A stretch of DNA of 64,000 nucleotides from Escherichia coli (GTDB lineage Bacteria > Pseudomonadota > Gammaproteobacteria > Enterobacterales > Enterobacteriaceae), in NCBI RefSeq assembly GCF_024700885.2, contig NZ_CP117016.1, one strand, 5' to 3'. This document shows positions 767 to 37,712 of the stretch, piece after piece. The notes under the pieces were generated by a model. It saw only the letters and a list, made by a program, of their open reading frames with translations. It made no database searches and was not told the DNA's origin. The translations under genes were made by a program, and so were the position numbers. How positions within the stretch are numbered: position 1 is the stretch's first letter; each line of letters begins with the position of its first letter.

Positions 767-3700
767 TACGCCTCCTCCAGGGTCATACCGGCAAACATCT
801 CATCCATCAGGGCAATCAACCCGGCATTGGGTCGGGTTGTGTAAATCCCCTGTTGCGGATGTTCTTTATCAACACCACGCAGGAACAGATAGATAACGCC
901 GCCAAAGTGACGATCATAGTCGTAATCAGCAATGCGATGGCGCAGATAACGATGCAGCGCCAGGGTATAAAGCTGATATTGCAGATCATAGCGGTGTGCC
1001 TGCATCGCCGCTGCCATAGCCTGTTGGGTGTAAGCCGAACTGTCTTCACCCAGCCAGTTGGATTTATAGTCGAGCAGGTAATAACGCCCTTCGTGGCGGA
1101 ATACCAGGTCGATAAAGCCTTTTAACATGCCGCGTACCTGCATGAACTCCAGCGGCGGGCAGCCAGCGGATAGCGGATCAAACTGGCGAATTAGTGCATC
1201 AAGCTGGCTGGCGATGAGCGGTTCACTAATCGGCAGGTAAAACTCCATCTCCACCTGTTTATCGCGGTCGGAAAGCTGACTCAGGCTAACACCCGTTTCA
1301 TTGAGAGGTGCCTGGAGGACAGCCGTGATCCACTCGGTCAACACCGGTTCCCACTGCGATTCAAAGCCGCCGAGCTCCAGTTTTTCCTGTACCCAGTTCG
1401 GGTCAACCGGCTGGGTAAAATCGAGGTCTTCAAACAAACTGTGCAAGAATGTCCCCGGTGACGCACCGCGCGGGAACTGATGCGGTGTTAACGTCGGTTC
1501 TTCAACGACGCTGACCACGCCTGCGGCATCAACATCCAGCCGTGGCATCAGATCCTGAGCGATACCGTGACCACGCTGCTGCAAACCGGAGTAGCTGGTG
1601 ACACGCCAGTTATCGCCGGGCAATCGTTGTAGTGTCCTCGCATTCAGTTCTGCAGTTATAGCATCATTAACCTGCCAGGGCTGGTTATCACCCGTTTGTG
1701 CCGTTTGCCAGGCAATATCATCATCGCATAACGCTTCAATACAGGTGCGAAGCCCTGCCGCATCTTGCGGTTCCCCTTTTTGCAGCAAACGCCCGAGCGC
1801 ACTTTGGTGGACGTCGGTGTCACCTTTTTTATCGCCACGACGGCGCACCAGCGGTGCAACGCCGAGACTGCAATGCCAAACCGAACGCGTCAGCGCCACG
1901 TAAAGCAAACGCAGATCTTCCGCCAGACGTTCGGCCTCCGCGAGGTCGACGCTTTCTGGCGCAGCATTAAGATCCAGAACAGCCTCAAACGAGTGGCGAT
2001 CGTGATAGAACGCCTGATCCTGGACGCGGAAATTGGTAATAAATGGCAACCAAACCAGCGGATATTCCAGCCCTTTTGATTTATGGATCGTGACAATCTG
2101 CACCAGATGTTTATCACTTTCGAGGCGCATTTGTTGGCTGGAGGCATTACTGTCTGGCTCGAGGATATGTTGCGATAACCAGCGTACCAGCGCATGTTCA
2201 CTTTCCAGCTGCGTTCCGGCTTCTTGTAGCAGTTCGCTGATATGCAAGATATCGGTAAGACGCCGCTCACCGCCTGCCGTTGCCAGCAAGTTTTCTGCAA
2301 TCTTACGCGCCGACATCAGCGCCCGCAGCATCGGCATAACGCCACGTTTGCGCCAGATTTGCCGATAACCATCGAACTCTTCGACTACCGCATCCCACGC
2401 ATGTTCGTCATTGTTCAGCGTTTCGATATCCAGCGCGTTCAGCCCCATCATTGACGTTGCCAGCGCACTACGCAGGGTGTTCTCACGTTCGGGCGTCATC
2501 ACCGCCTGCAACAACCAAAGCATTTCCTGCGCTTCCAGAGTTTCAAAAACACTGTCGCGGTTCGAAAGGTAAACGGAAGGGATTTCCAGCAACGTTAAGG
2601 CGTCGCGCACCTGGGCGGCCTCCTGGCGGCTGCGCACCAGCACACTGATGTCCGAAGCACGCACCGGACGCGCGTCGTCGCCGTTCATCAGCAACGCTTC
2701 GCCCCGCTGTCCGGCTTGTAGCCAGTCGCGGATTTGCGCAGCACATACCTGCGCCATGGTACTTTGATAGTCGCCAACGCCACAGCTTTCGCCTTCCATC
2801 AGCCACATTTTCATCGCAGGCTGCGTTTCACCTTTAAAGACAAAACGTAACGCCTGATTTTTCCCGGCTGATTTCACTGGAATAAACGGTATTTCGCGAA
2901 ACATGAACGCGTCATCAGTCTGGCTGAAAAGCTTGTTCACACTATTCACCATTCCTGGTGCGGAGCGCCAGTTGGTATCTAAGGTGTAGTGGGCGTGAAC
3001 TTCGCTACGCGCCTTCATATAAGTGAAGATATCCGCACCCCGGAATGCATATATGGCCTGTTTCGGGTCGCCAATCAGCAACAAAGCGGTTTCCGGCTGA
3101 TGGTGCCAGATACGGCGAAAAATTCGGTACTGCTGGGGGTCGGTATCCTGAAATTCATCGATCATTGCCACCGGGAATCGCGTACGGATCGCCGCTGCCA
3201 ACACCTCGCCGCTTTCGCTACGCAGCGCGGAATCGAGCCGACTTAACATGTCATCAAAACCCAATTCACCACGGCGGCGTTTTTCACGCGCTACTGTTTC
3301 GCGGATCTCAGCCAATGCGCGGGTTATCACCAGATCACGGATCGACAATGGTTCTGCAAGCAGTTGATCGATCGCCTCAAACAGTGGATGTCGCGGGGTT
3401 TCCCCCCCGGCTTTCGTGCGATCTTCTAAGAAACGCTGAGAGAATTTTTCCAGCGACTCCGGTAACTGATAACTGTTGGTCTCTTCTTCTGCCCAAGCGC
3501 TGATCTTCTCGATCCATTTAGCCTGATTGCTACGGTTAAACTTGCGTCGATCAATACCAGAAGATTCGATCAGCGCATCCAGTTCACCCACTGCGTCGCG
3601 CCACTGCTGTTTTACCGTATCAATACGCGCCACAATTTGCGCGTGGCGGGAAGCCAGCGTTTCATCATCGGGCGGCGGTGCTTTGATAACCGGTGCTTCG

Positions 3701-4308
3701 CCTTGCAGATAACGATTAATATCGCGCAGCAACGCCTGCGGCCCTTTCCAGGTTTCAAAGACCACCTGGGCAATTTCACGCGGCAGCGGGTAGCAGTGGC
3801 GACGCCAGAAATCGGCGCAGGCCTGGTAGCGTAGCAGAGACTCATCTTCAATCAGCTGCTGCTCAAACAGCATGCCGGATTCAAAGGCATTCAGGTTGAG
3901 CATGCGCTGGCAAAAACCGTGAATAGTAAAGACTGCCGCTTCATCCATCTGCCGTTCGGCTAACAACAACCACTGCGCGGCTTGCGCTTTATCGTCGATC
4001 TCTTCCAGCAGGCGTTCGTACAGTGGATTGTCGGTGGTTTCACGCAGACAGGCGATGCGCAACTCGTGGATATTGCTACGGATACGACCGCGCAATTCTG
4101 CCGTGGCAGCCTCGGTAAAGGTGACCACCAGCAGTTCTTCAACGGTCAGCGGGCGGGGAAAGGCGGCAGAACCGCCTAGTCCAAGTAACAGGCGCAAATA
4201 GAGCGCCGCAATCGTAAAGGTTTTGCCTGTGCCGGCAGAGGCTTCAATCAGGCGCTCGCCCTGTAAGGGCAAGCGCAAAGGATCTAGTGTCTCGGCGACA
4301 TCACTCAT
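766..4308 (-). CDS. recB: RecBCD helicase/nuclease beta subunit RecB
   Basis: ORF 766..4317; product [13 protein letters not shown]... with UvrD-type helicase Walker A (AGTGKTF) and C-terminal nuclease domain; likely start is the second Met (4308). Confidence 0.95.
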
Positions 4309-7189
4309 TCTTTTCACTCATCAGGGGCATTGTTTGCTGCAACGCGCTGACGTTCTCCCACACTTTCCAGCCTTCAGGATGCACATATTCGGCTTTCCCG
4401 TTCTGGCTGCCGGAAATCTGCGACAGAATAGCCATGCCTTGCGGCTCGACCACCGCCTGATGGAAGAAATCAGCAAGTTTTTGCGGCGTCAGCAGTTTTA
4501 TCTGGGCCACGATTTTATCACGCGAATCGAAGCGCATATTGCCGCGATCGAAATCTTTACTTAACTTCGATGCTTCTTCGCCGAGCGTTTGCGGTGCCTG
4601 CAGCATCTGGGTTATTACCGCCTGCTGGATTTGCGCAAACTCTTCTGGCTTCATCGTCCGCAATTTTGCCTCTGCGGTTGGGAAAAACGCCTTGTAACGC
4701 TCCCACAAGAATGAAGGCTGTTTATCATTGCTTTGCAACAGGAAGCCCATGCCCCACTGACGCCCCACGCTCATTGGAAACGCAAACACGGCATAGCCCA
4801 ACTGTTCTTCGGTACGCAACTGATTGTAGAACCACGGCTGTACGATCTGCCCCAACAGAGAGCTATAGGCTGAGCTGGTGTATTCATCGTAGCCAGTCGG
4901 TACAAATACCGCTGCCAGTGCGGAGTCGGTACTGTTACCGGCTTTTTCAAAGATGACGGATTGTTTTTTATCGACCACGACATCTTTGTTACGACACCAC
5001 TCCGAACCATCAGCGCCCAACTGTTTTTGCACATCGCGTGCCAGCGTTGTTGCCTGGGCTTCGGTCATGTTGCCAATAACCATAAACTCTGGTCGAGCCC
5101 CTGATTTTAAGGCGTCGCGATAGGCCAGCACCTCTTTCAAAGTGATTGAAGGCAAAATTTTGCGCCGTTCATCTCGCGAGAAGTACGGCACTTGCGAGAG
5201 CATCTGCGCGGGCATAATCGCCTGCTCGAACGCTTTGCCCTTTTCTGCGGAATCCATCATCTGGTTATACCAGGACTTCGCCTGCTCAAGCTGATCTTCC
5301 GTAGCGGTATAGCTAAAGTAGCCCTCGAGCAATGCCTGGAACAGCTGCGGCAGGCGCTGGGTGTAACCATTGGCATTAACCATAAGGCCGTTGTTAGCGT
5401 TGGTGGAAAAACTTATGCCACCAACCGACGCCTGGTTGCTTAACTGATCAAGCGCCAGCCCTGCGAGATAATCATTGAGCGCAAACATCACCTGATTGCG
5501 GGCGCTATCCATGGCTTTCGGATTACGCAAAATCAGGCTGACATCAGCTTTGGGTTCGCTGGAAAAATAACGGCTTGGCGCATAGACCACACGCAGATTC
5601 GACTCATCAACAATAAGCTCTGGATGGTCATATTTCTTCTCTGACTTAATCAGCGAGAAATCGTCAGGAATATAGGGGTTAAGCTCTGGCAAAGAGAGCG
5701 CAATGTCGGCGGCTTTTTTCTGCCAGTCAGCGAAAGTTTGTGCGCTAATTTTATCTACCTGATACGGCGCATCGACAAAGTAAGCCGTTTTGTTGTGCGG
5801 CTCTTTCGGGCTGATATACCAGATACGCGCATTCTGCGGCGTCATCATCGCCAGGCGTTCTTTTACTGCTTTAGCGTCGTACCGATCGGCAATATTGACT
5901 GCATCCAGCGTATGCTCAACAGGAACGCGAATCATGGTATCTGCCAGCCATTCGACGTAATCCATATCACGGGTGATTGACGGATAACGGAAGTCGATAT
6001 CCAGCACATTCGCCAGTTCATCGAAGTATTGTTTATCGATCCCTTTTTCACGTAACAGATTGAGGTAGCTAAAAATGGCCGCCACAACCTGATCGCGATT
6101 CGCCAGACCTTTATCGGTTAAAGAAGCAGAGATCGCTAATACGCCGCTGTTGCCGTTGACGATAGGATCGGAGTTGGCGCTAATGCCCTCAACTAATCCC
6201 TGCTTTTGCAGCCAGTCAGAAAGTGTACCTGGGCTGCGATTACCAATCAGATAGGTAATCAATTCATCCGTTTTACTACGGAACTTCGCTGAGTTGTTCT
6301 CGATGCGAAACTCAACGCGCAGAACTTTACGCGGCAGCGCCGGGACGTAATGAATGATAATGCCCTTTTGCGCGTCGGTGACTACCGGCACGGTGATTTC
6401 CGGTTTTTTGCTCTCGTTGTTCGGCACGCGACCAAAGGTGTCCGCCGCCATTTTTGCCAACTCCGGCAGCGGTTTATTGCTGTAAATAACCGCCTTCATC
6501 AGATTGGCGGAATAGTACTTCTCGTGGAAATCTTTCAGCGCCTGCTGCACCGGATTTCCGGGTTTGTCGCTTAAAGTTTCGAGGTTACCACCAGAAAACT
6601 TTGAACCGGGGTGTGCCGGGTTAATGGTTTCTGCGCTGACCTGCGCCATGCGCATCCCGTCACGCGTACGCGCCATGGTTAATTCGGCATTCACTGCATT
6701 ACGTTCACGTTCGGCGTATTTCTTGTCGAGCAAGGGTTCTGCAATAGCGTCCGCCAGGCGGTCTACCGCACCGGGCAAGGCGTCGTTCTCAACTTCCAGA
6801 TAGAAAGCCGTGCGATACGGTGCCGTGCTGGCATTGTGACTGCCGCCGTGCATTTTGAGATATTCGGCCAGACTGTCAGCCTGCGGGTACTTTTTCGACC
6901 CCATCAGACTCATATGTTCAAGGTAATGTGCCAGCCCCTGGTACGCCTCGGGATCTTCCAGCGACCCAACGGGAACCACCAGCGCCGAGAGCGATTTAAC
7001 CGCCTGCGGATCAGAAACCAGCAAGACCACCATACCGTTATCCAGACGTATAGCCTGATACTGGCGGTTATCTTTATCACTTTTACGGATGGTTTCCTGA
7101 ATCGGCTGCCATCCCGTTTCTGCCTGACTTAAGGGTGCCCAAAGGGCAACAAACAACAATAATGCTTTGAACCAGGTGCTGCGGGGCAT
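4301..7189 (-). CDS. ptrA: Protease III (pitrilysin), M16 zinc metalloprotease
   Basis: 962-aa ORF with signal peptide and inverted zinc motif HYLEH; stop overlaps recB start. Confidence 0.95.
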   Translation of the reverse strand: MPRSTWFKALLLFVALWAPLSQAETGWQPIQETIRKSDKDNRQYQAIRLDNGMVVLLVSDPQAVKSLSALVVPVGSLEDPEAYQGLAHYLEHMSLMGSKKYPQADSLAEYLKMHGGSHNASTAPYRTAFYLEVENDALPGAVDRLADAIAEPLLDKKYAERERNAVNAELTMARTRDGMRMAQVSAETINPAHPGSKFSGGNLETLSDKPGNPVQQALKDFHEKYYSANLMKAVIYSNKPLPELAKMAADTFGRVPNNESKKPEITVPVVTDAQKGIIIHYVPALPRKVLRVEFRIENNSAKFRSKTDELITYLIGNRSPGTLSDWLQKQGLVEGISANSDPIVNGNSGVLAISASLTDKGLANRDQVVAAIFSYLNLLREKGIDKQYFDELANVLDIDFRYPSITRDMDYVEWLADTMIRVPVEHTLDAVNIADRYDAKAVKERLAMMTPQNARIWYISPKEPHNKTAYFVDAPYQVDKISAQTFADWQKKAADIALSLPELNPYIPDDFSLIKSEKKYDHPELIVDESNLRVVYAPSRYFSSEPKADVSLILRNPKAMDSARNQVMFALNDYLAGLALDQLSNQASVGGISFSTNANNGLMVNANGYTQRLPQLFQALLEGYFSYTATEDQLEQAKSWYNQMMDSAEKGKAFEQAIMPAQMLSQVPYFSRDERRKILPSITLKEVLAYRDALKSGARPEFMVIGNMTEAQATTLARDVQKQLGADGSEWCRNKDVVVDKKQSVIFEKAGNSTDSALAAVFVPTGYDEYTSSAYSSLLGQIVQPWFYNQLRTEEQLGYAVFAFPMSVGRQWGMGFLLQSNDKQPSFLWERYKAFFPTAEAKLRTMKPEEFAQIQQAVITQMLQAPQTLGEEASKLSKDFDRGNMRFDSRDKIVAQIKLLTPQKLADFFHQAVVEPQGMAILSQISGSQNGKAEYVHPEGWKVWENVSALQQTMPLMSEKNE

Positions 7190-7364
7190 TCACGGACCTC
7201 ATAATCAACTTTATTTTCTGACCAGATTCAACAGGTTAACGCAAATCATCTGCCAGAATTTAATCTTGTGCTGCACGAGTCAGCCTATGTCTATATATCC
7301 ATCAGTCCGTGACTGGTGCGCATCATAATGTAAGCGAATGAATTGCGCAATTTTTATACAACAC

Positions 7365-10300
7365 TCATGACTGATTAAAGCGAAACAGCGGTAACAGGAA
7401 ACGTTGCGACTGTTCAACGATGGCCTCCATTGTCTCTGGTGTTAATTGCCGCCAGAGCCGTTGATACCAGATATCATCACCTTCGCCACGCACCATCATG
7501 TTGCCTTCGTAAGCCTGAAGGAATTTCGTACGGGCTTTTTGCAACGTGGAATCGTCATCCAGCATGGCATCGTTTTGCGCGTCATAACAGGTTTTTAGCC
7601 ACGCGCCGCCACTTTCAGGTAACACCAGCAATGGCGCGGACATTCCTTCACGATACCCCTCAATCAGTTGTGAGAGGTAATGCAAAGCCTGTTCGGCTGC
7701 AAGCGGCGGAAAACGCCACTCGCCGTCTTTGCGTAGAAAAAGGCGACTTTCACCATTACCACCGCTGGCACAGTAGACAAGGTGTTCCAGCCAAAGTTGC
7801 ATTCCCTGTGCCACACTTAATAAAGAGGGACGCCAGCGCAACAGGCCATCCGGCTGCACCTGCGGCAACCAGCCAGTTATCTGCACACCGTTGCAGGCGA
7901 GATCAATTTCCATACTCTGCCCCGGCTGGCGACAGGCAATGACTCTATCGGCAAGCTGCTGCATCTCCTGGCACTGTGTTTCCCAGAAAATTTCACCAAA
8001 AGCGCCATACGGTAAATCCCCTGCCGCCCGGAAGCGGCGGAACAAGCGTTCGGCATCATCCTGCTCAACCAGTGCATTCAATAACTGCTGATTGATTTGA
8101 TAACGGCTAAGCCCTTCCAGAATAAATGGCTCGGTGTCGGGGATTTCGCTGTCTTCGGTACGGAAGTTCACCTGCAAACGCATCTGGAAAAATGCCCGCA
8201 CCGGATGTGCCCAGAATCGTTGTAGCGTTTCCAGCGGCACGGTTTCCGGTAAGGTAAACGGCAGCGGCTGAACAAATTCAGAATGTGCTTTACCAGCCTG
8301 GCTGGCCGCAGGTAGCCATTCACGAGCATAACTTTGTCGTTCGCCTGGCTGGTAGTTTTGCGGATCAAACGGCATTCGGGTATGGAGGCAAGTAAGATGC
8401 GCTTTTACCCTTGCCTCGCTTTCATCACAGTTGAGCGCCTCATCGCCCGGTAGATAATGACTTTGTCCGATGTAGTCGATCAGTTCCTGCACCAGTACCG
8501 ACGGGAAACGTTCACTGTTATCCTGAATGGAACGCCCGATATAGCTGATATAGAGTTTTTGCTGCGCGGAAATTAACGCTTCCAGGAACAGATAGCGGTC
8601 ATCATCGCGACGGCTACGGTCGCCACGCTTCGGTTTCTGGCTCATCAGGTCAAAGCCCAATGGCGCAAGCTGGCGTGGATAAACGCCGTCGTTCATTCCC
8701 AGCAGGCAAACCACTTTGAATGGGATGGAACGCATTGGCATCAGAGTACAAATGTTAACCGGTCCGGCGAGAAAACGCTGGCTGATACGTTCCTGATCCA
8801 GGCGCTGTGCCAGTTCATCACGCAATAGTGACAGCGGCACCGCGTCGCCATACTGCGCACCTAAACCTTCGGCGATAATCGCCTGCCATTGTTGTTCGAT
8901 CAGCGTCATCGCCGCTTCGGTTTCCGCATCCGGCAGGAAGAAGGCGTTGAGCATATCGCGACAAACCGGCAACCACTCTTCCAGCGGACGCTCCTGCGCC
9001 AGCCCGCGACGCCAGATGTTTAGCTGCATTAGCAGTGAAGCCAGATGCCCCACCAGTTCTGCAATTAAGCCGCTCGATTCATCATAAGGTAGAACCGATT
9101 GCCACTCGCCCTGCGCGCTCTCCATCGCGTAGCCCAGCAACATACGCGTCAGGCCAAATCGCCAGGTGTGTTGTCCGGTGGCCGGGAGTTCCAGCTCGCG
9201 AACGTTGTCGTCATCTATCCCCCAACGAATGCCGGATTCGTTGACCCACTGGCGTAAATAACGCAGCCCTTCTTCGGTGATGTCAAACCGCGCCGCCAGC
9301 ACCGGCACATCCAGCAGCGCCAGCACATCCTCTGACACAAAGCGACTGTCAGGCAGTGATAACAGGCTGATAAACGCTTCCAGTACCGGATGTGACTGCC
9401 GCGCCCGACGGTCGGAAATGGCGTAAGGCAGGTAACGATCCGCAGGTGCGCTACCAAACACAGCCTGAATAAACGGACTGTAGCTGTCGATGTCAGCCAC
9501 CATCACGATGATGTCGCGCGGAGTAAGTGTCGGGTCTTCCTCCAGCATCGCCAGCAGGCGATCGTGTAAAACTTCAACTTCACGCTGCGGGCTATGGCAA
9601 ACGTGAAAGGTGATACTGCTATCCAGTGGATCAAGCGGGCGTTTGTTATCGCTACGGGAAAACTCTTCGATGTTCACACCCGCAACGGCGCGGTTTTCCA
9701 GTTCCAGAATGTCAGACTGAATGTTATGCAGCAGGTTATCTGGCGTGACATCGACAAAAGCGTCCAGCTCCTGGCTGCCCTCCAGGTCAGAAAGAAGATA
9801 AATGTAGTCGCGCCCAAGCTTGCCCCATGAGGCCAGCAGCGGGTTACCGACATCCTGTTCACCATCGCTGTTAAAGAGCTGTCCGGCATTTTCGCTGTCG
9901 CGAAATAGCGGTAATTCGCGATCTTCAAAACTGTGTCGGCGCTGGCGAGTCAGCAGTTTCGCCAGATAAGCAGGATCTTTAATGTCGCCCCAGTAATAAC
10001 GGCAGGGGTTGGTAAACAGGAGATGGATTTCAATATGTTTACCCAGCGCCTGTAGCGCCTGGAGATAAACAGGCGGTAACGCGGAAATACCGCATATAAA
10101 GACGCGCGAAGGTAGCCCCGGCGGGCAGGTCGTCGCGGACTCCAGCGTTTCGATAAAGCGCTGATAGAGATTGGCGCGGTGCCAGCGCGGTTGCCCGAGT
10201 TCGTCGGTATATTCCACCAACGCCTTCCACAACGGCGCTTGCCAGGCCTGTGCTTCTCCCAGCCCTTCAACCAAATGTCCTGTTTCCCACTGTGCCAGCC

Positions 10301-20974: not shown

Positions 20975-24341
<3,367 letters not shown>

Positions 24342-24407
24342 TCAGTAAAAGCGAATGGAGGGAGATTACACGAGATAAAGAACGCGAGCGACAGTAAATT
24401 AGGTGCG

Positions 24408-24495
24408 AAAAAAAACCTGCGCATCCGCGCAGGTTGGTGCAAGAGACAGGGTACGAAGAGCGTACCGAATAATCTCACCAATCAATACCTCTGGG
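24408..24495 (-). ncRNA. omrA: Small regulatory RNA OmrA
   Basis: Minus strand reads CCCAGAGGTATTGATTGGTGAGATTATTCGGTACGCTCTTCGTACCCTGTCTCTTGCACCAACCTGCGCGGATGCGCAGGTTTTTTTT (88 nt) with terminal GC hairpin plus U-run; between aas and galR. Confidence 0.85.
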
Positions 24496-24610
24496 ATCTT
24501 GATTGTGGTCTGCACGACGACTCTTCGCCAGCGAGAAAACGCAAAGGAATGAAGGGAAATGCAACGAGGTGTGTAAATTGTCGGTTACTGTTACAGATTG
24601 ATGACCGGCA

Positions 24611-24692
24611 AAAAAAAACCTGCGCATCTGCGCAGGCTGGTGTAATTCATGTGCTCAACCCGAAGTTGACTTCACCTATCAATACCTCTGGG
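24611..24692 (-). ncRNA. omrB: Small regulatory RNA OmrB
   Basis: Paralogous copy sharing the 5' end CCCAGAGGTATTGAT and the 3' terminator CCTGCGCAGATGCGCAGG plus U-run with omrA; about 115 bp from omrA. Confidence 0.85.
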
Positions 24693-24905
24693 ATCACCAC
24701 TTTAGCAACCTGAAGCCAAACGCCACCAGCGGTCAATCGCAACAGCGTTTCGCAAAGTGTAACCAAAGGTTTGCAATCTCTTTTTTTGTCTTACTTATTT
24801 GCGTTTGGCTCACATTCCCACGATGAAAACACGCCGCCCCTTGAACCAACGGGCGTTTTCCGTAACACTGAAACAATGTAAGCGTTTACCCACTAAGGTA
24901 TTTTC

Positions 24906-25937
24906 ATGGCGACAATAAAGGATGTAGCCCGACTGGCAGGCGTTTCAGTCGCCACCGTTTCCCGCGTCATTAATAATTCACCCAAAGCCAGCGAAGCTTC
25001 CCGGCTGGCTGTGCATAGTGCAATGGAGTCTCTTAGCTATCACCCGAACGCCAACGCCCGTGCGCTGGCACAGCAGACCACTGAAACGGTCGGTCTGGTC
25101 GTTGGTGATGTTTCCGATCCGTTTTTCGGTGCAATGGTGAAAGCGGTCGAACAGGTGGCTTATCACACCGGTAATTTTTTATTGATTGGCAACGGTTACC
25201 ACAACGAACAAAAAGAGCGTCAGGCCATTGAGCAACTGATCCGCCATCGCTGTGCTGCGCTGGTTGTCCATGCCAAAATGATCCCGGATGCCGATTTAGC
25301 CTCATTAATGAAACAAATGCCCGGTATGGTGCTGATCAACCGTATCCTGCCTGGCTTTGAAAATCGTTGTATTGCTCTGGACGATCGTTACGGTGCCTGG
25401 CTGGCAACGCGTCATTTAATTCAGCAAGGTCATACCCGCATTGGTTATCTGTGCTCTAACCACTCTATTTCTGACGCCGAAGATCGTCTGCAAGGGTATT
25501 ACGATGCCCTTGCTGAAAGTGGTATTCCGGCCAATGATCGGCTGGTGACATTTGGCGAACCAGACGAAAGCGGCGGCGAACAGGCAATGACCGAGCTTTT
25601 GGGACGAGGAAGAAATTTCACTGCGGTAGCCTGTTATAACGATTCAATGGCGGCGGGCGCGATGGGCGTTCTCAATGATAATGGTATTGATGTACCGGGT
25701 GAGATTTCGTTAATTGGCTTTGATGATGTGCTGGTGTCACGCTATGTGCGCCCGCGTCTGACCACCGTGCGTTACCCAATCGTGACGATGGCGACGCAGG
25801 CTGCCGAACTGGCTTTGGCGCTGGCGGATAATCGCCCTCTCCCGGAAATCACTAATGTCTTTAGCCCGACGCTGGTACGTCGCCATTCAGTGTCAACTCC
25901 GTCGCTGGAGGCAAGTCATCATGCAACCAGCGACTAA
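24906..25937 (+). CDS. galR: Galactose operon repressor (LacI family)
   Basis: 343-aa ORF with N-terminal HTH MATIKDVARLAGVSVATVSRVINN. Confidence 0.95.
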   Translation: MATIKDVARLAGVSVATVSRVINNSPKASEASRLAVHSAMESLSYHPNANARALAQQTTETVGLVVGDVSDPFFGAMVKAVEQVAYHTGNFLLIGNGYHNEQKERQAIEQLIRHRCAALVVHAKMIPDADLASLMKQMPGMVLINRILPGFENRCIALDDRYGAWLATRHLIQQGHTRIGYLCSNHSISDAEDRLQGYYDALAESGIPANDRLVTFGEPDESGGEQAMTELLGRGRNFTAVACYNDSMAAGAMGVLNDNGIDVPGEISLIGFDDVLVSRYVRPRLTTVRYPIVTMATQAAELALALADNRPLPEITNVFSPTLVRRHSVSTPSLEASHHATSD

Positions 25938-35842: not shown

Positions 35843-36475
35843 ATGGGGCTTTGTAGTCGTTATAAAAGTCTTACATGCAATAGTTGCTCAATGCATTGCC
35901 AAATAATGCCAGAAGAGTCACCGCGTTTGCAGTATTGCGCAAACTCGTGTTTTTGTATGTGGCCCGAAGAAAGTTCATATTTTAATCGTGGTGTGGTGGA
36001 AGGTATCTTAACAAAAAACCACAATGCGAGATTAAGCGGATATATTTTTGTCGATTTTTCAGTAAGTTTTTTACGTCTATTCCTTGAAAAAGACTGGATT
36101 GACTATCTTGCAAGTACTGACATGGGGATTGTTTTAGTCAGCGACCGAAATATGCAATCGTTAGCTAACTACTGGCGAAAACACAACTCTGCAATATCTG
36201 CTGTCATATATAATGATGATGGTCTTGATGTTGCCAATGAAAAGATCAGACAACTATTTATTGGTCGTTATTTATCATTTACCAGAGGGAACACATTAAC
36301 TCAGATGGAATTCACCATAATGGGATATATGGTTTCTGGTTATAATCCATATCAGATTGCTGAAGTTCTGGATATGGATATCCGTAGCATCTACGCGTAC
36401 AAGCAACGAATCGAAAAGAGAATGGGTGGTAAAATAAACGAGTTATTTATTCGTTCACATTCGGTCCAACATTGA
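35843..36475 (+). CDS. yqeH: LuxR/FixJ-type HTH transcriptional regulator (ETT2-island remnant)
   Basis: AT-rich ORF; strong RBS GGGAGG 9 nt upstream of the Met at 35843 (ORF track frame opens at 35783); C-terminal LuxR-like HTH segment QMEFTIMGYMVSGYNPYQIAEVLDMDIRSIYAYKQRIEKRMG. Confidence 0.7.
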   Translation: MGLCSRYKSLTCNSCSMHCQIMPEESPRLQYCANSCFCMWPEESSYFNRGVVEGILTKNHNARLSGYIFVDFSVSFLRLFLEKDWIDYLASTDMGIVLVSDRNMQSLANYWRKHNSAISAVIYNDDGLDVANEKIRQLFIGRYLSFTRGNTLTQMEFTIMGYMVSGYNPYQIAEVLDMDIRSIYAYKQRIEKRMGGKINELFIRSHSVQH

Positions 36476-36688
36476 TACTCAATAATCTGCCAGAATCATA
36501 CTCTGCTTATACGGGCATCTATTGAAATGCCCGTATTTTACAAATAAGCAGTACCCCCAAGAGTAAACAACATGGTATTTAAAACCATCACACGAAAAAT
36601 TCAGAAGCATTACGAAATATGAATTTACAAACAGGTGATGCTGCCAACTTACTGATTTAGTGTATGATGGTGTTTTTGAGGTGCTCCA

Positions 36689-36964
36689 GTGGCTTCTGTT
36701 TCTATCAGCTGTCCCTCCTGTTCAGCTACTGACGGGGTGGTGCGTAACGGCAAAAGCACCGCCGGACATCAGCGCTATCTCTGCTCTCACTGCCGTAAAA
36801 CATGGCAACTGCAGTTCACTTACACCGCTTCTCAACCCGGTACGCACCAGAAAATCATTGATATGGCCATGAATGGCGTTGGATGCCGGGCAACTGCCCG
36901 CATTATGGGCGTTGGCCTCAACACGATTTTACGTCACTTAAAAAACTCAGGCCGCAGTCGGTAA
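36689..36964 (+). CDS. insA: IS1 InsA (transposition inhibitor / N-terminal part of InsAB' transposase)
   Basis: 91-aa [43 protein letters not shown] (zinc-finger CxxC...CxxC). Confidence 0.9.
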
Positions 36965-37386
36965 CCTCGCGCATACAGCCGGGCAGTGACGTCATCGTCT
37001 GCGCGGAAATGGACGAACAGTGGGGCTATGTCGGGGCTAAATCGCGCCAGCGCTGGCTGTTTTACGCGTATGACAGTCTCCGGAAGACGGTTGTTGCGCA
37101 CGTATTCGGTGAACGCACTATGGCGACGCTGGGGCGTCTTATGAGCCTGCTGTCACCCTTTGACGTGGTGATATGGATGACGGATGGCTGGCCGCTGTAT
37201 GAATCCCGCCTGAAGGGAAAGCTGCACGTAATCAGCAAGCGATATACGCAGCGAATTGAGCGGCATAACCTGAATCTGAGGCAGCACCTGGCACGGCTGG
37301 GACGGAAGTCGCTGTCGTTCTCAAAATCGGTGGAGCTGCATGACAAAGTCATCGGGCATTATCTGAACATAAAACACTATCAATAA
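36883..37386 (+). CDS. insB: IS1 InsB frame (expressed as InsAB' transposase by -1 frameshift)
   Basis: ORF in the -1 frame relative to insA; slippery A6C motif at 36940-36946 inside the insA/insB overlap. Confidence 0.85.
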
Positions 37387-37638
37387 GTTGGAGTCATTAC
37401 CCAGTCTGTCGATGACATTACAATGCCAGGATGGGCTTTATCTTCACGTTGTGCTATCGCGGTGTGAGAGGTGCAACTGCCGCCAACGTTAGGTTATACT
37501 GTCATCTCACCGTGTAACTTAACGTGACAGTTACTAAGGGCGGATCACAATGGTAGAACTCCTAAGCAAATTAAATAGGTAACTGTTTAAGTTGCTGACA
37601 GAGAAGACTTTTTTGGTCTTCTCCACCTGGGGAGATTC

Positions 37639-37712
37639 TGGAGCGGGCGAAGGGAATCGAACCCTCGTATAGAGCTTGGGAAGCTCTCGTTCTACCATTG
37701 AACTACGCCCGC
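37639..37712 (-). tRNA. glyU: tRNA-Gly (anticodon CCC)
   Basis: Minus strand reads GCGGGCGTAGTTCAATGGTAGAACGAGAGCTTCCCAAGCTCTATACGAGGGTTCGATTCCCTTCGCCCGCTCCA; cloverleaf with anticodon CCC and encoded CCA end. Confidence 0.9.

Follow-up and report, generated by a model that had tools for sequence, protein, structure and literature searches.

Between aas and galR, the window, i.e., the whole 64-kb stretch of DNA that was analyzed, carries two repeated elements on the minus strand, of 88 nt (24408-24495) and 82 nt (24611-24692), which are separated by a gap of 115 bp (24496-24610). The original prediction had placed two such elements, about 115 bp apart, on this strand and between these two genes (aas at 22161-24320, minus strand; galR at 24906-25937, plus strand), and all these points agree with the present analysis. 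The same prediction named the pair OmrA and OmrB and left the copies unassigned; the 88-nt copy proximal to aas is OmrA and the 82-nt copy proximal to galR is OmrB. The transcribed features and the flanking genes are as follows:

22161-24320, minus strand: aas, flanking gene downstream of omrA and on the same strand (from the RefSeq annotation of strains identical over the region)
24408-24495, minus strand: omrA, 88-nt sRNA proximal to aas
24408-24435, minus strand: OmrA intrinsic terminator, stem-loop and U8 (terminator scan), presumed Hfq-binding 3′ module
24475-24495, minus strand: OmrA nt 1-21, conserved single-stranded 5′ seed CCCAGAGGUAUUGAUUGGUGA (fold, Rfam consensus, 20 of 21 nt equal to OmrB)
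24610-24692, minus strand: omrB, 82-nt sRNA proximal to galR, with the T-run reaching 24610
24610-24638, minus strand: OmrB intrinsic terminator, stem-loop and U-tail (terminator scan)
24672-24692, minus strand: OmrB nt 1-21, conserved 5′ seed CCCAGAGGUAUUGAUAGGUGA (Rfam match, repeat search, pairing)
24906-25937, plus strand: galR, flanking gene divergent from omrB (from the RefSeq annotation of strains identical over the region)

Read from 24495 to 24408, the first unit is CCCAGAGGTATTGATTGGTGAGATTATTCGGTACGCTCTTCGTACCCTGTCTCTTGCACCAACCTGCGCGGATGCGCAGGTTTTTTTT (88 nt), while the second, read from 24692 to 24611, is CCCAGAGGTATTGATAGGTGAAGTCAACTTCGGGTTGAGCACATGAATTACACCAGCCTGCGCAGATGCGCAGGTTTTTTTT (82 nt), with a ninth T next to it at 24610. 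The repeat search returned direct repeats between the copies of 38 nt at 89% and of 24 nt at 96%. The common 5′ ends that had been described are present, with nucleotides 1-15, CCCAGAGGTATTGAT, identical in the two elements and 20 of the first 21 nucleotides matching. A search of the 64-kb window that tolerated up to two mismatches found this 15-mer exactly twice, against 0.10 occurrences expected by chance. The middles of the two elements fail to align, in keeping with their description as divergent.

The resemblance resumes at the 3′ ends, where 32 of the last 35 nucleotides are identical and both hairpins are called as intrinsic terminators, each with 9 pairs, 6 of them G-C, and then a T-run; the hairpins had thus been read correctly as common to both. 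The first element ends in CCTGCGCGGATGCGCAGG plus T8 and the second in CCTGCGCAGATGCGCAGG plus T9, so that the U8 tail attributed to both holds for the first element and needs correction for the second, the DNA T-run of which is T9 in the strain of the window. Because aas runs left from 24320 and galR runs right from 24906, these two terminators cannot be those of the neighboring genes, and each unit must therefore be its own transcription unit. The elements had also been said to be absent from the ORF track; this is true in substance, although a mechanical 78-aa ORF starting with TTG (24245-24481, minus strand) overlaps the first element.

On the galR side, a LacI/GalR-type palindrome, TGTAAGCGTTTACC (24877-24890, plus strand), precedes the gene, with its last position 16 nt upstream of the start codon. 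We take it to be, plausibly, a GalR/GalS operator for the autoregulation of galR.

Family membership and comparison with K-12

When the whole window was scanned with Rfam 15 at the gathering thresholds, three matches were obtained, two to the OmrA-B family (RF00079, formerly known as rygA/rygB and sraE) and one to a tRNA. Both OmrA-B matches lie on the minus strand and span model positions 1-87 of 87, one at 24408-24495 with 96.6 bits (E 6e-18) and the other at 24611-24692 with 86.1 bits (E 2e-15), against a gathering score of 40 bits. This covariance-model search had been proposed as a check together with the original prediction, and its outcome, along with the curated omrA and omrB at the homologous positions of K-12 MG1655, bears out the names given to the pair. 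No family besides OmrA-B reaches threshold in the intergenic region. A permissive scan of this region also listed Leu_leader (27.8 vs 50 bits), SgrS (15.2 vs 37 bits) and TeloSII_ncR49; these sub-threshold matches all overlap the terminators and were rejected as chance.

The curated K-12 MG1655 record lists two ncRNA genes, omrA (b4444, 88 nt), which adjoins aas, and omrB (b4445, 82 nt), which adjoins galR. In an alignment of the intergenic regions, the ends of the K-12 genes map exactly onto window positions 24495/24408 and 24692/24610. Over the 585 bp between aas and galR, only three alignment columns differ from K-12, namely, substitutions at 24836 and 24874, near galR, and an extra T in the OmrB tail. 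OmrA is identical to K-12 omrA at 88 of 88 positions, and OmrB is identical to its K-12 counterpart save for T9 instead of T8 in the terminator tail (24610-24618, minus strand); the two transcription units show no other difference. OmrA is free of all three differences, and so are the 114 bp upstream of each start site. The two strains thus share the intergenic region, the strand, the order and lengths of the genes, the start sites, the promoters to -114, the seed and the terminators; the extra T and the two substitutions are not expected to make a functional difference. Almost certainly, then, the locus consists of the E. coli genes omrA (24408-24495) and omrB (24611-24692), two paralogous but separate minus-strand units that each have their own promoter and intrinsic terminator.

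A 611-bp region covering the locus has matches in 5423 of the 5426 complete E. coli genomes, with at least 99% identity in 5377 of them. E. coli 300709 (NZ_CP025903.1) is among only 18 matching genomes in which the region is not contiguous, and this strain has an IS3-family insertion between the two sRNA genes (locus extract 2734-3947). The break lies at query position 259, which corresponds to window position ~24558, about -63 of the omrA promoter; judged from this position, the insertion should cut omrA off from the OmpR-responsive region upstream of it.

The gene tracks of automatically annotated genomes give another picture of the region. The RefSeq records NZ_CP030767.1 and NZ_CP117013.1, produced by PGAP, have nothing annotated between aas and galR (window 24321-24905), although the DNA is identical to that of K-12, where both genes are annotated; records of this kind leave the gene track empty there. 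The missing omrA and omrB are an annotation gap, neither a biological absence nor evidence against the two genes.

Elsewhere in the window, an IS1A transposase gene (36689-37386) is found between yqeH and tRNA-Gly(CCC) (37639-37712), within the interval 35843-37712. The ~26-kb ETT2 type III secretion island of strain 2017C-4109 is absent at the corresponding place in the window, which looks like an IS1-associated deletion. Strain MLI114 matches positions 28000-52000 of the window at 100%.

Promoters, seed pairing and regulation

With positions counted from the K-12 start sites, the following promoter features, all on the minus strand, precede the two genes:

24496-24609, minus strand: omrA promoter region, -1 to -114, identical to K-12, filling nearly the whole 115-bp spacer between the sRNAs
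24502-24507, minus strand: omrA -10 hexamer CACAAT (-12 to -7), with C at -12
24537-24544, minus strand: omrA upstream box TTGCGTTT (-49 to -42), conserved across genera
24557-24565, minus strand: omrA upstream box GTTGCATTT (-70 to -62), conserved across genera
24693-24806, minus strand: omrB promoter region, -1 to -114, identical to K-12, the substitutions at 24836 and 24874 lying further upstream
24699-24704, minus strand: omrB -10 hexamer TAAAGT (-12 to -7), with T at -12
24735-24743, minus strand: omrB upstream box GTTGCGATT (-51 to -43), conserved across genera
24755-24763, minus strand: omrB upstream box GTTACACTT (-71 to -63), conserved across genera

In each promoter the -35 region (CGCTGG) is poor, and a spacing of 20 bp separates two conserved boxes, which are presumably OmpR half-site-like elements. 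A consensus scan found no sigma-70 promoter in 24250-24950, a result that is uninformative here because both promoters are activator-dependent with a poor -35 region and because the omrA -10 element, with its -12C, is non-consensus. In vitro, OmpR-P directly activates both promoters on templates spanning -114 to +50, and a truncation of omrA at -60 served as the non-activated control (PMC5175337). The -12C has been reported as the sigma-S determinant of omrA, which relies almost fully on sigma-S, unlike omrB (PMC12692685). The C at -12 in the omrA hexamer and the T at -12 in that of omrB match this published determinant, and the -12T of omrB fits recognition by sigma-70 and independence from sigma-S. 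Furthermore, multicopy RstB-RstA activates omrB specifically (PMC13425233).

Both RNAs are predicted to fold more stably than dinucleotide shuffles of their sequences, with -29.5 kcal/mol (z = -2.7) for OmrA and -26.6 kcal/mol (z = -2.9) for OmrB, and a strong 3′ hairpin is predicted in each. The seed CCCAGAGGUAUUGAU at the start of the transcript is exact in both copies and is unpaired in the Rfam consensus structure. In the predicted fold of OmrA, nucleotides 1-15 are unpaired and are followed by a central domain closed by GGUG...CACC and then by the terminator hairpin, the same architecture as that of the Rfam OmrA-B consensus. In the predicted fold of OmrB, only nucleotides 1-6 are free, because a weak alternative helix takes up nucleotides 7-15.

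The first nine nucleotides, CCCAGAGGU, are complementary to two K-12 target sequences, ompT at +12 to +20 (ACUUCUGGG) and ompR at -18 to -10 (ACCUUUGGG), both at the sites given in PMC2588501. In a simple duplex-energy scan, the energy of the OmrA duplex was equalled by 15 of 300 shuffled seeds on ompT and by 4 of 300 on ompR. For cirA, an RNAduplex run of nucleotides 1-30 against -130 to +60 failed to recover the published site, which is located at the ribosome-binding site, as 120 and 209 of 300 shuffles scored equally well; the simple scan is too crude for this target. Experimentally, repression of ompT, cirA and ompR through the 5′ end was established in K-12 with compensatory mutations and depends on Hfq and RNase E, and both RNAs bind Hfq (PMC2588501). 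Accumulation of discrete Hfq-bound transcripts of ~88 and ~82 nt has been reported for the identical K-12 sequences (PMC2588501, PMC12692685). The literature describes further targets of OmrA and OmrB in iron uptake, motility and biofilm formation, in addition to btuB and to carbon and lipid metabolism.

It is from the literature on these identical K-12 sequences that we infer the expression, the Hfq dependence, the OmpR and sigma-S control and the target repression of the window copies. In such a mechanism, OmpR would activate the transcription of both RNAs; omrA would also need sigma-S because of the C at -12 of its -10 element, and omrB, with the canonical -12T, would be sigma-S-independent. 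Both RNAs would bind Hfq, probably via the terminator hairpin and the U-tail, and their common unstructured 5′ end would base-pair close to the start of translation in many mRNAs, among them ompT, cirA, fecA, fepA, csgD, flhDC, dgcM and btuB. This pairing would lead to a block of translation and/or to decay by RNase E, and repression of ompR-envZ by OmrA and OmrB would close a negative feedback loop. Through their divergent middles and promoters, the paralogues would each have some targets and inputs of their own.

Other duplicated Hfq-dependent sRNA pairs exist in Enterobacterales, GlmY/GlmZ (cited in PMC2588501) being one example. Such pairs resemble OmrA and OmrB, by analogy only, in being paralogues with common seed or terminator modules and with diverged promoters, which makes different inputs possible. 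They belong to different sequence families and have different regulons, and the classification of the present locus does not depend on them.

Relatives in Enterobacterales and alternative readings

The 15-nt seed was used to look for relatives in the genomes of GTDB species. Of the listed loci, about two thirds were chance matches in unrelated phyla, and only the Enterobacterales loci, about 30 among the matches listed, were used after confirmation with Rfam. Rfam confirms 27 OmrA-B genes in 18 Enterobacterales loci among the matches listed. Tandem pairs are found in 8 of the listed loci, from Escherichia albertii, Citrobacter, two Enterobacter, Kosakonia, Pluralibacter, Serratia grimesii and Edwardsiella, and 9 loci among the matches listed have a single copy. 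Pantoea stewartii has two OmrA-B copies that are not adjacent but separated by about 2 kb (locus extract 2747-2822 and 4789-4879; also locus L061). Synteny is conserved, as aas and/or galR flank the sRNA gene(s) in 16 of the 18 listed loci (tblastn with the Aas and GalR of the window). In an RNAalifold consensus of 29 sequences, the GGUG/CACC stem is invariant, and 3 of the 9 terminator pairs show compensatory changes. The invariance of nucleotides 1-15 among these homologues is circular, because the loci were selected with that 15-mer, and it was not used as evidence.

Alignment of the upstream regions separates two promoter types. The OmrA-type reads ...GTTGCA(T/C)TT...TTTGCGTTTTC...CCACAAT and the OmrB-type reads TTT(G/A)GTTACACTTTGCG...GTTGCGATTG...TA(A/G/C)NNT. 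Among the matches listed, the -12C (CACAAT) stands upstream of OmrA-type copies in six genera, including Escherichia, and a -12T stands upstream of OmrB-type copies. These two conserved types agree with the conservation analysis in PMC13425233. In the single-copy loci of Lelliottia, Superficieibacter and Enterobacter BIGb0383, an OmrA-like body follows an OmrB-type promoter, which is the “chimeric” case of the same study.

Two single-copy loci stand apart in other respects. Siccibacter colletis has one Omr gene (locus extract 3958-4445) with both an OmrA-type body and an OmrA-type promoter (CCACAAT, -12C), in contrast to the single-copy cases of PMC13425233, in which it is the omrB promoter that serves the remaining gene. 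A search of this locus at E values up to 1 reveals no OmrB transcript region, and a GGTTACAC...GTTGCG box, like that of the omrB promoter, persists nearer galR. In Enterobacter sp. BIGb0383 (locus extract 5962-8766), ~2.8 kb separate the single Omr gene from aas, compared with ~90 nt elsewhere, a spacing that suggests an insertion.

The variation in copy number raises the question of whether the window has only one functional copy, next to a duplicate in decay. Besides the single-copy Enterobacterales, the absence of omrB in Shigella boydii, noted in a review (PMC12692685), and the large redundancy of the two RNAs on common targets (PMC2588501) speak for this reading. However, both copies are identical to K-12 genes that are each expressed and active, both are kept at no less than 99% identity across thousands of E. 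coli genomes, and each has its own conserved promoter architecture, so that decay of one copy is highly improbable.

Even less credit can be given to the idea that the elements have no function as trans-acting RNAs and are mere copies of an intrinsic terminator or of some repeated intergenic element. A strong hairpin in both elements and their nature as direct repeats of each other speak for it, but the terminators lie upstream of both flanking genes and not at the 3′ end of a gene, and the similarity includes a 5′ block located 60-70 nt upstream of each hairpin. Moreover, a conserved promoter-like region precedes each copy, the match to the OmrA-B covariance model takes in the whole unit from one end to the other, and the sequences are identical to RNAs detected and characterized in K-12, for which discrete transcripts of ~85 nt starting with CCCAGAGG have already been reported. 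That the region codes for small proteins instead of RNAs is next to impossible, for the mechanical ORFs of 20-78 aa that overlap the elements have weak or arbitrary start codons, run through the terminator hairpins and overlap each other on both strands as chance predicts, and the transcribed middle varies in length across the 29 homologues, which a conserved frame would forbid. Altogether, 16 short overlapping ORFs of at least 20 aa were considered on both strands, and none was credible.

With the locus read as omrA and omrB, one feature of its arrangement may concern the neighboring gene. In 14 Enterobacterales loci among the matches listed, the aas start codon is found 64-159 nt downstream of the OmrA terminator and on the same strand. 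This conserved arrangement might reflect a link in cis, by which partial read-through of the omrA terminator would put aas-lplT under OmpR and sigma-S control, although we regard this as improbable. The aas-lplT genes serve lysophospholipid recycling, and such control, if real, would complement the role in lipid metabolism recently proposed for OmrA and OmrB. Between the OmrA terminator and aas (window 24321-24407), a short TTTA.CTCGT.TA block is conserved between E. coli and Siccibacter; it may be the own promoter of aas.

The omrA and omrB genes have been known since the sRNA screens of 2001, and later work has dealt with their targets, the feedback on OmpR and the sigma-S dependence, up to a review in 2025. 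The pair described here is therefore already known and nothing in it is new, so that it carries little weight as a discovery; reading the sequence alone had nevertheless identified both genes correctly. For E. coli strains other than K-12, the 585-bp intergenic region that seems “empty” in automatic RefSeq/PGAP records actually holds omrA and omrB.
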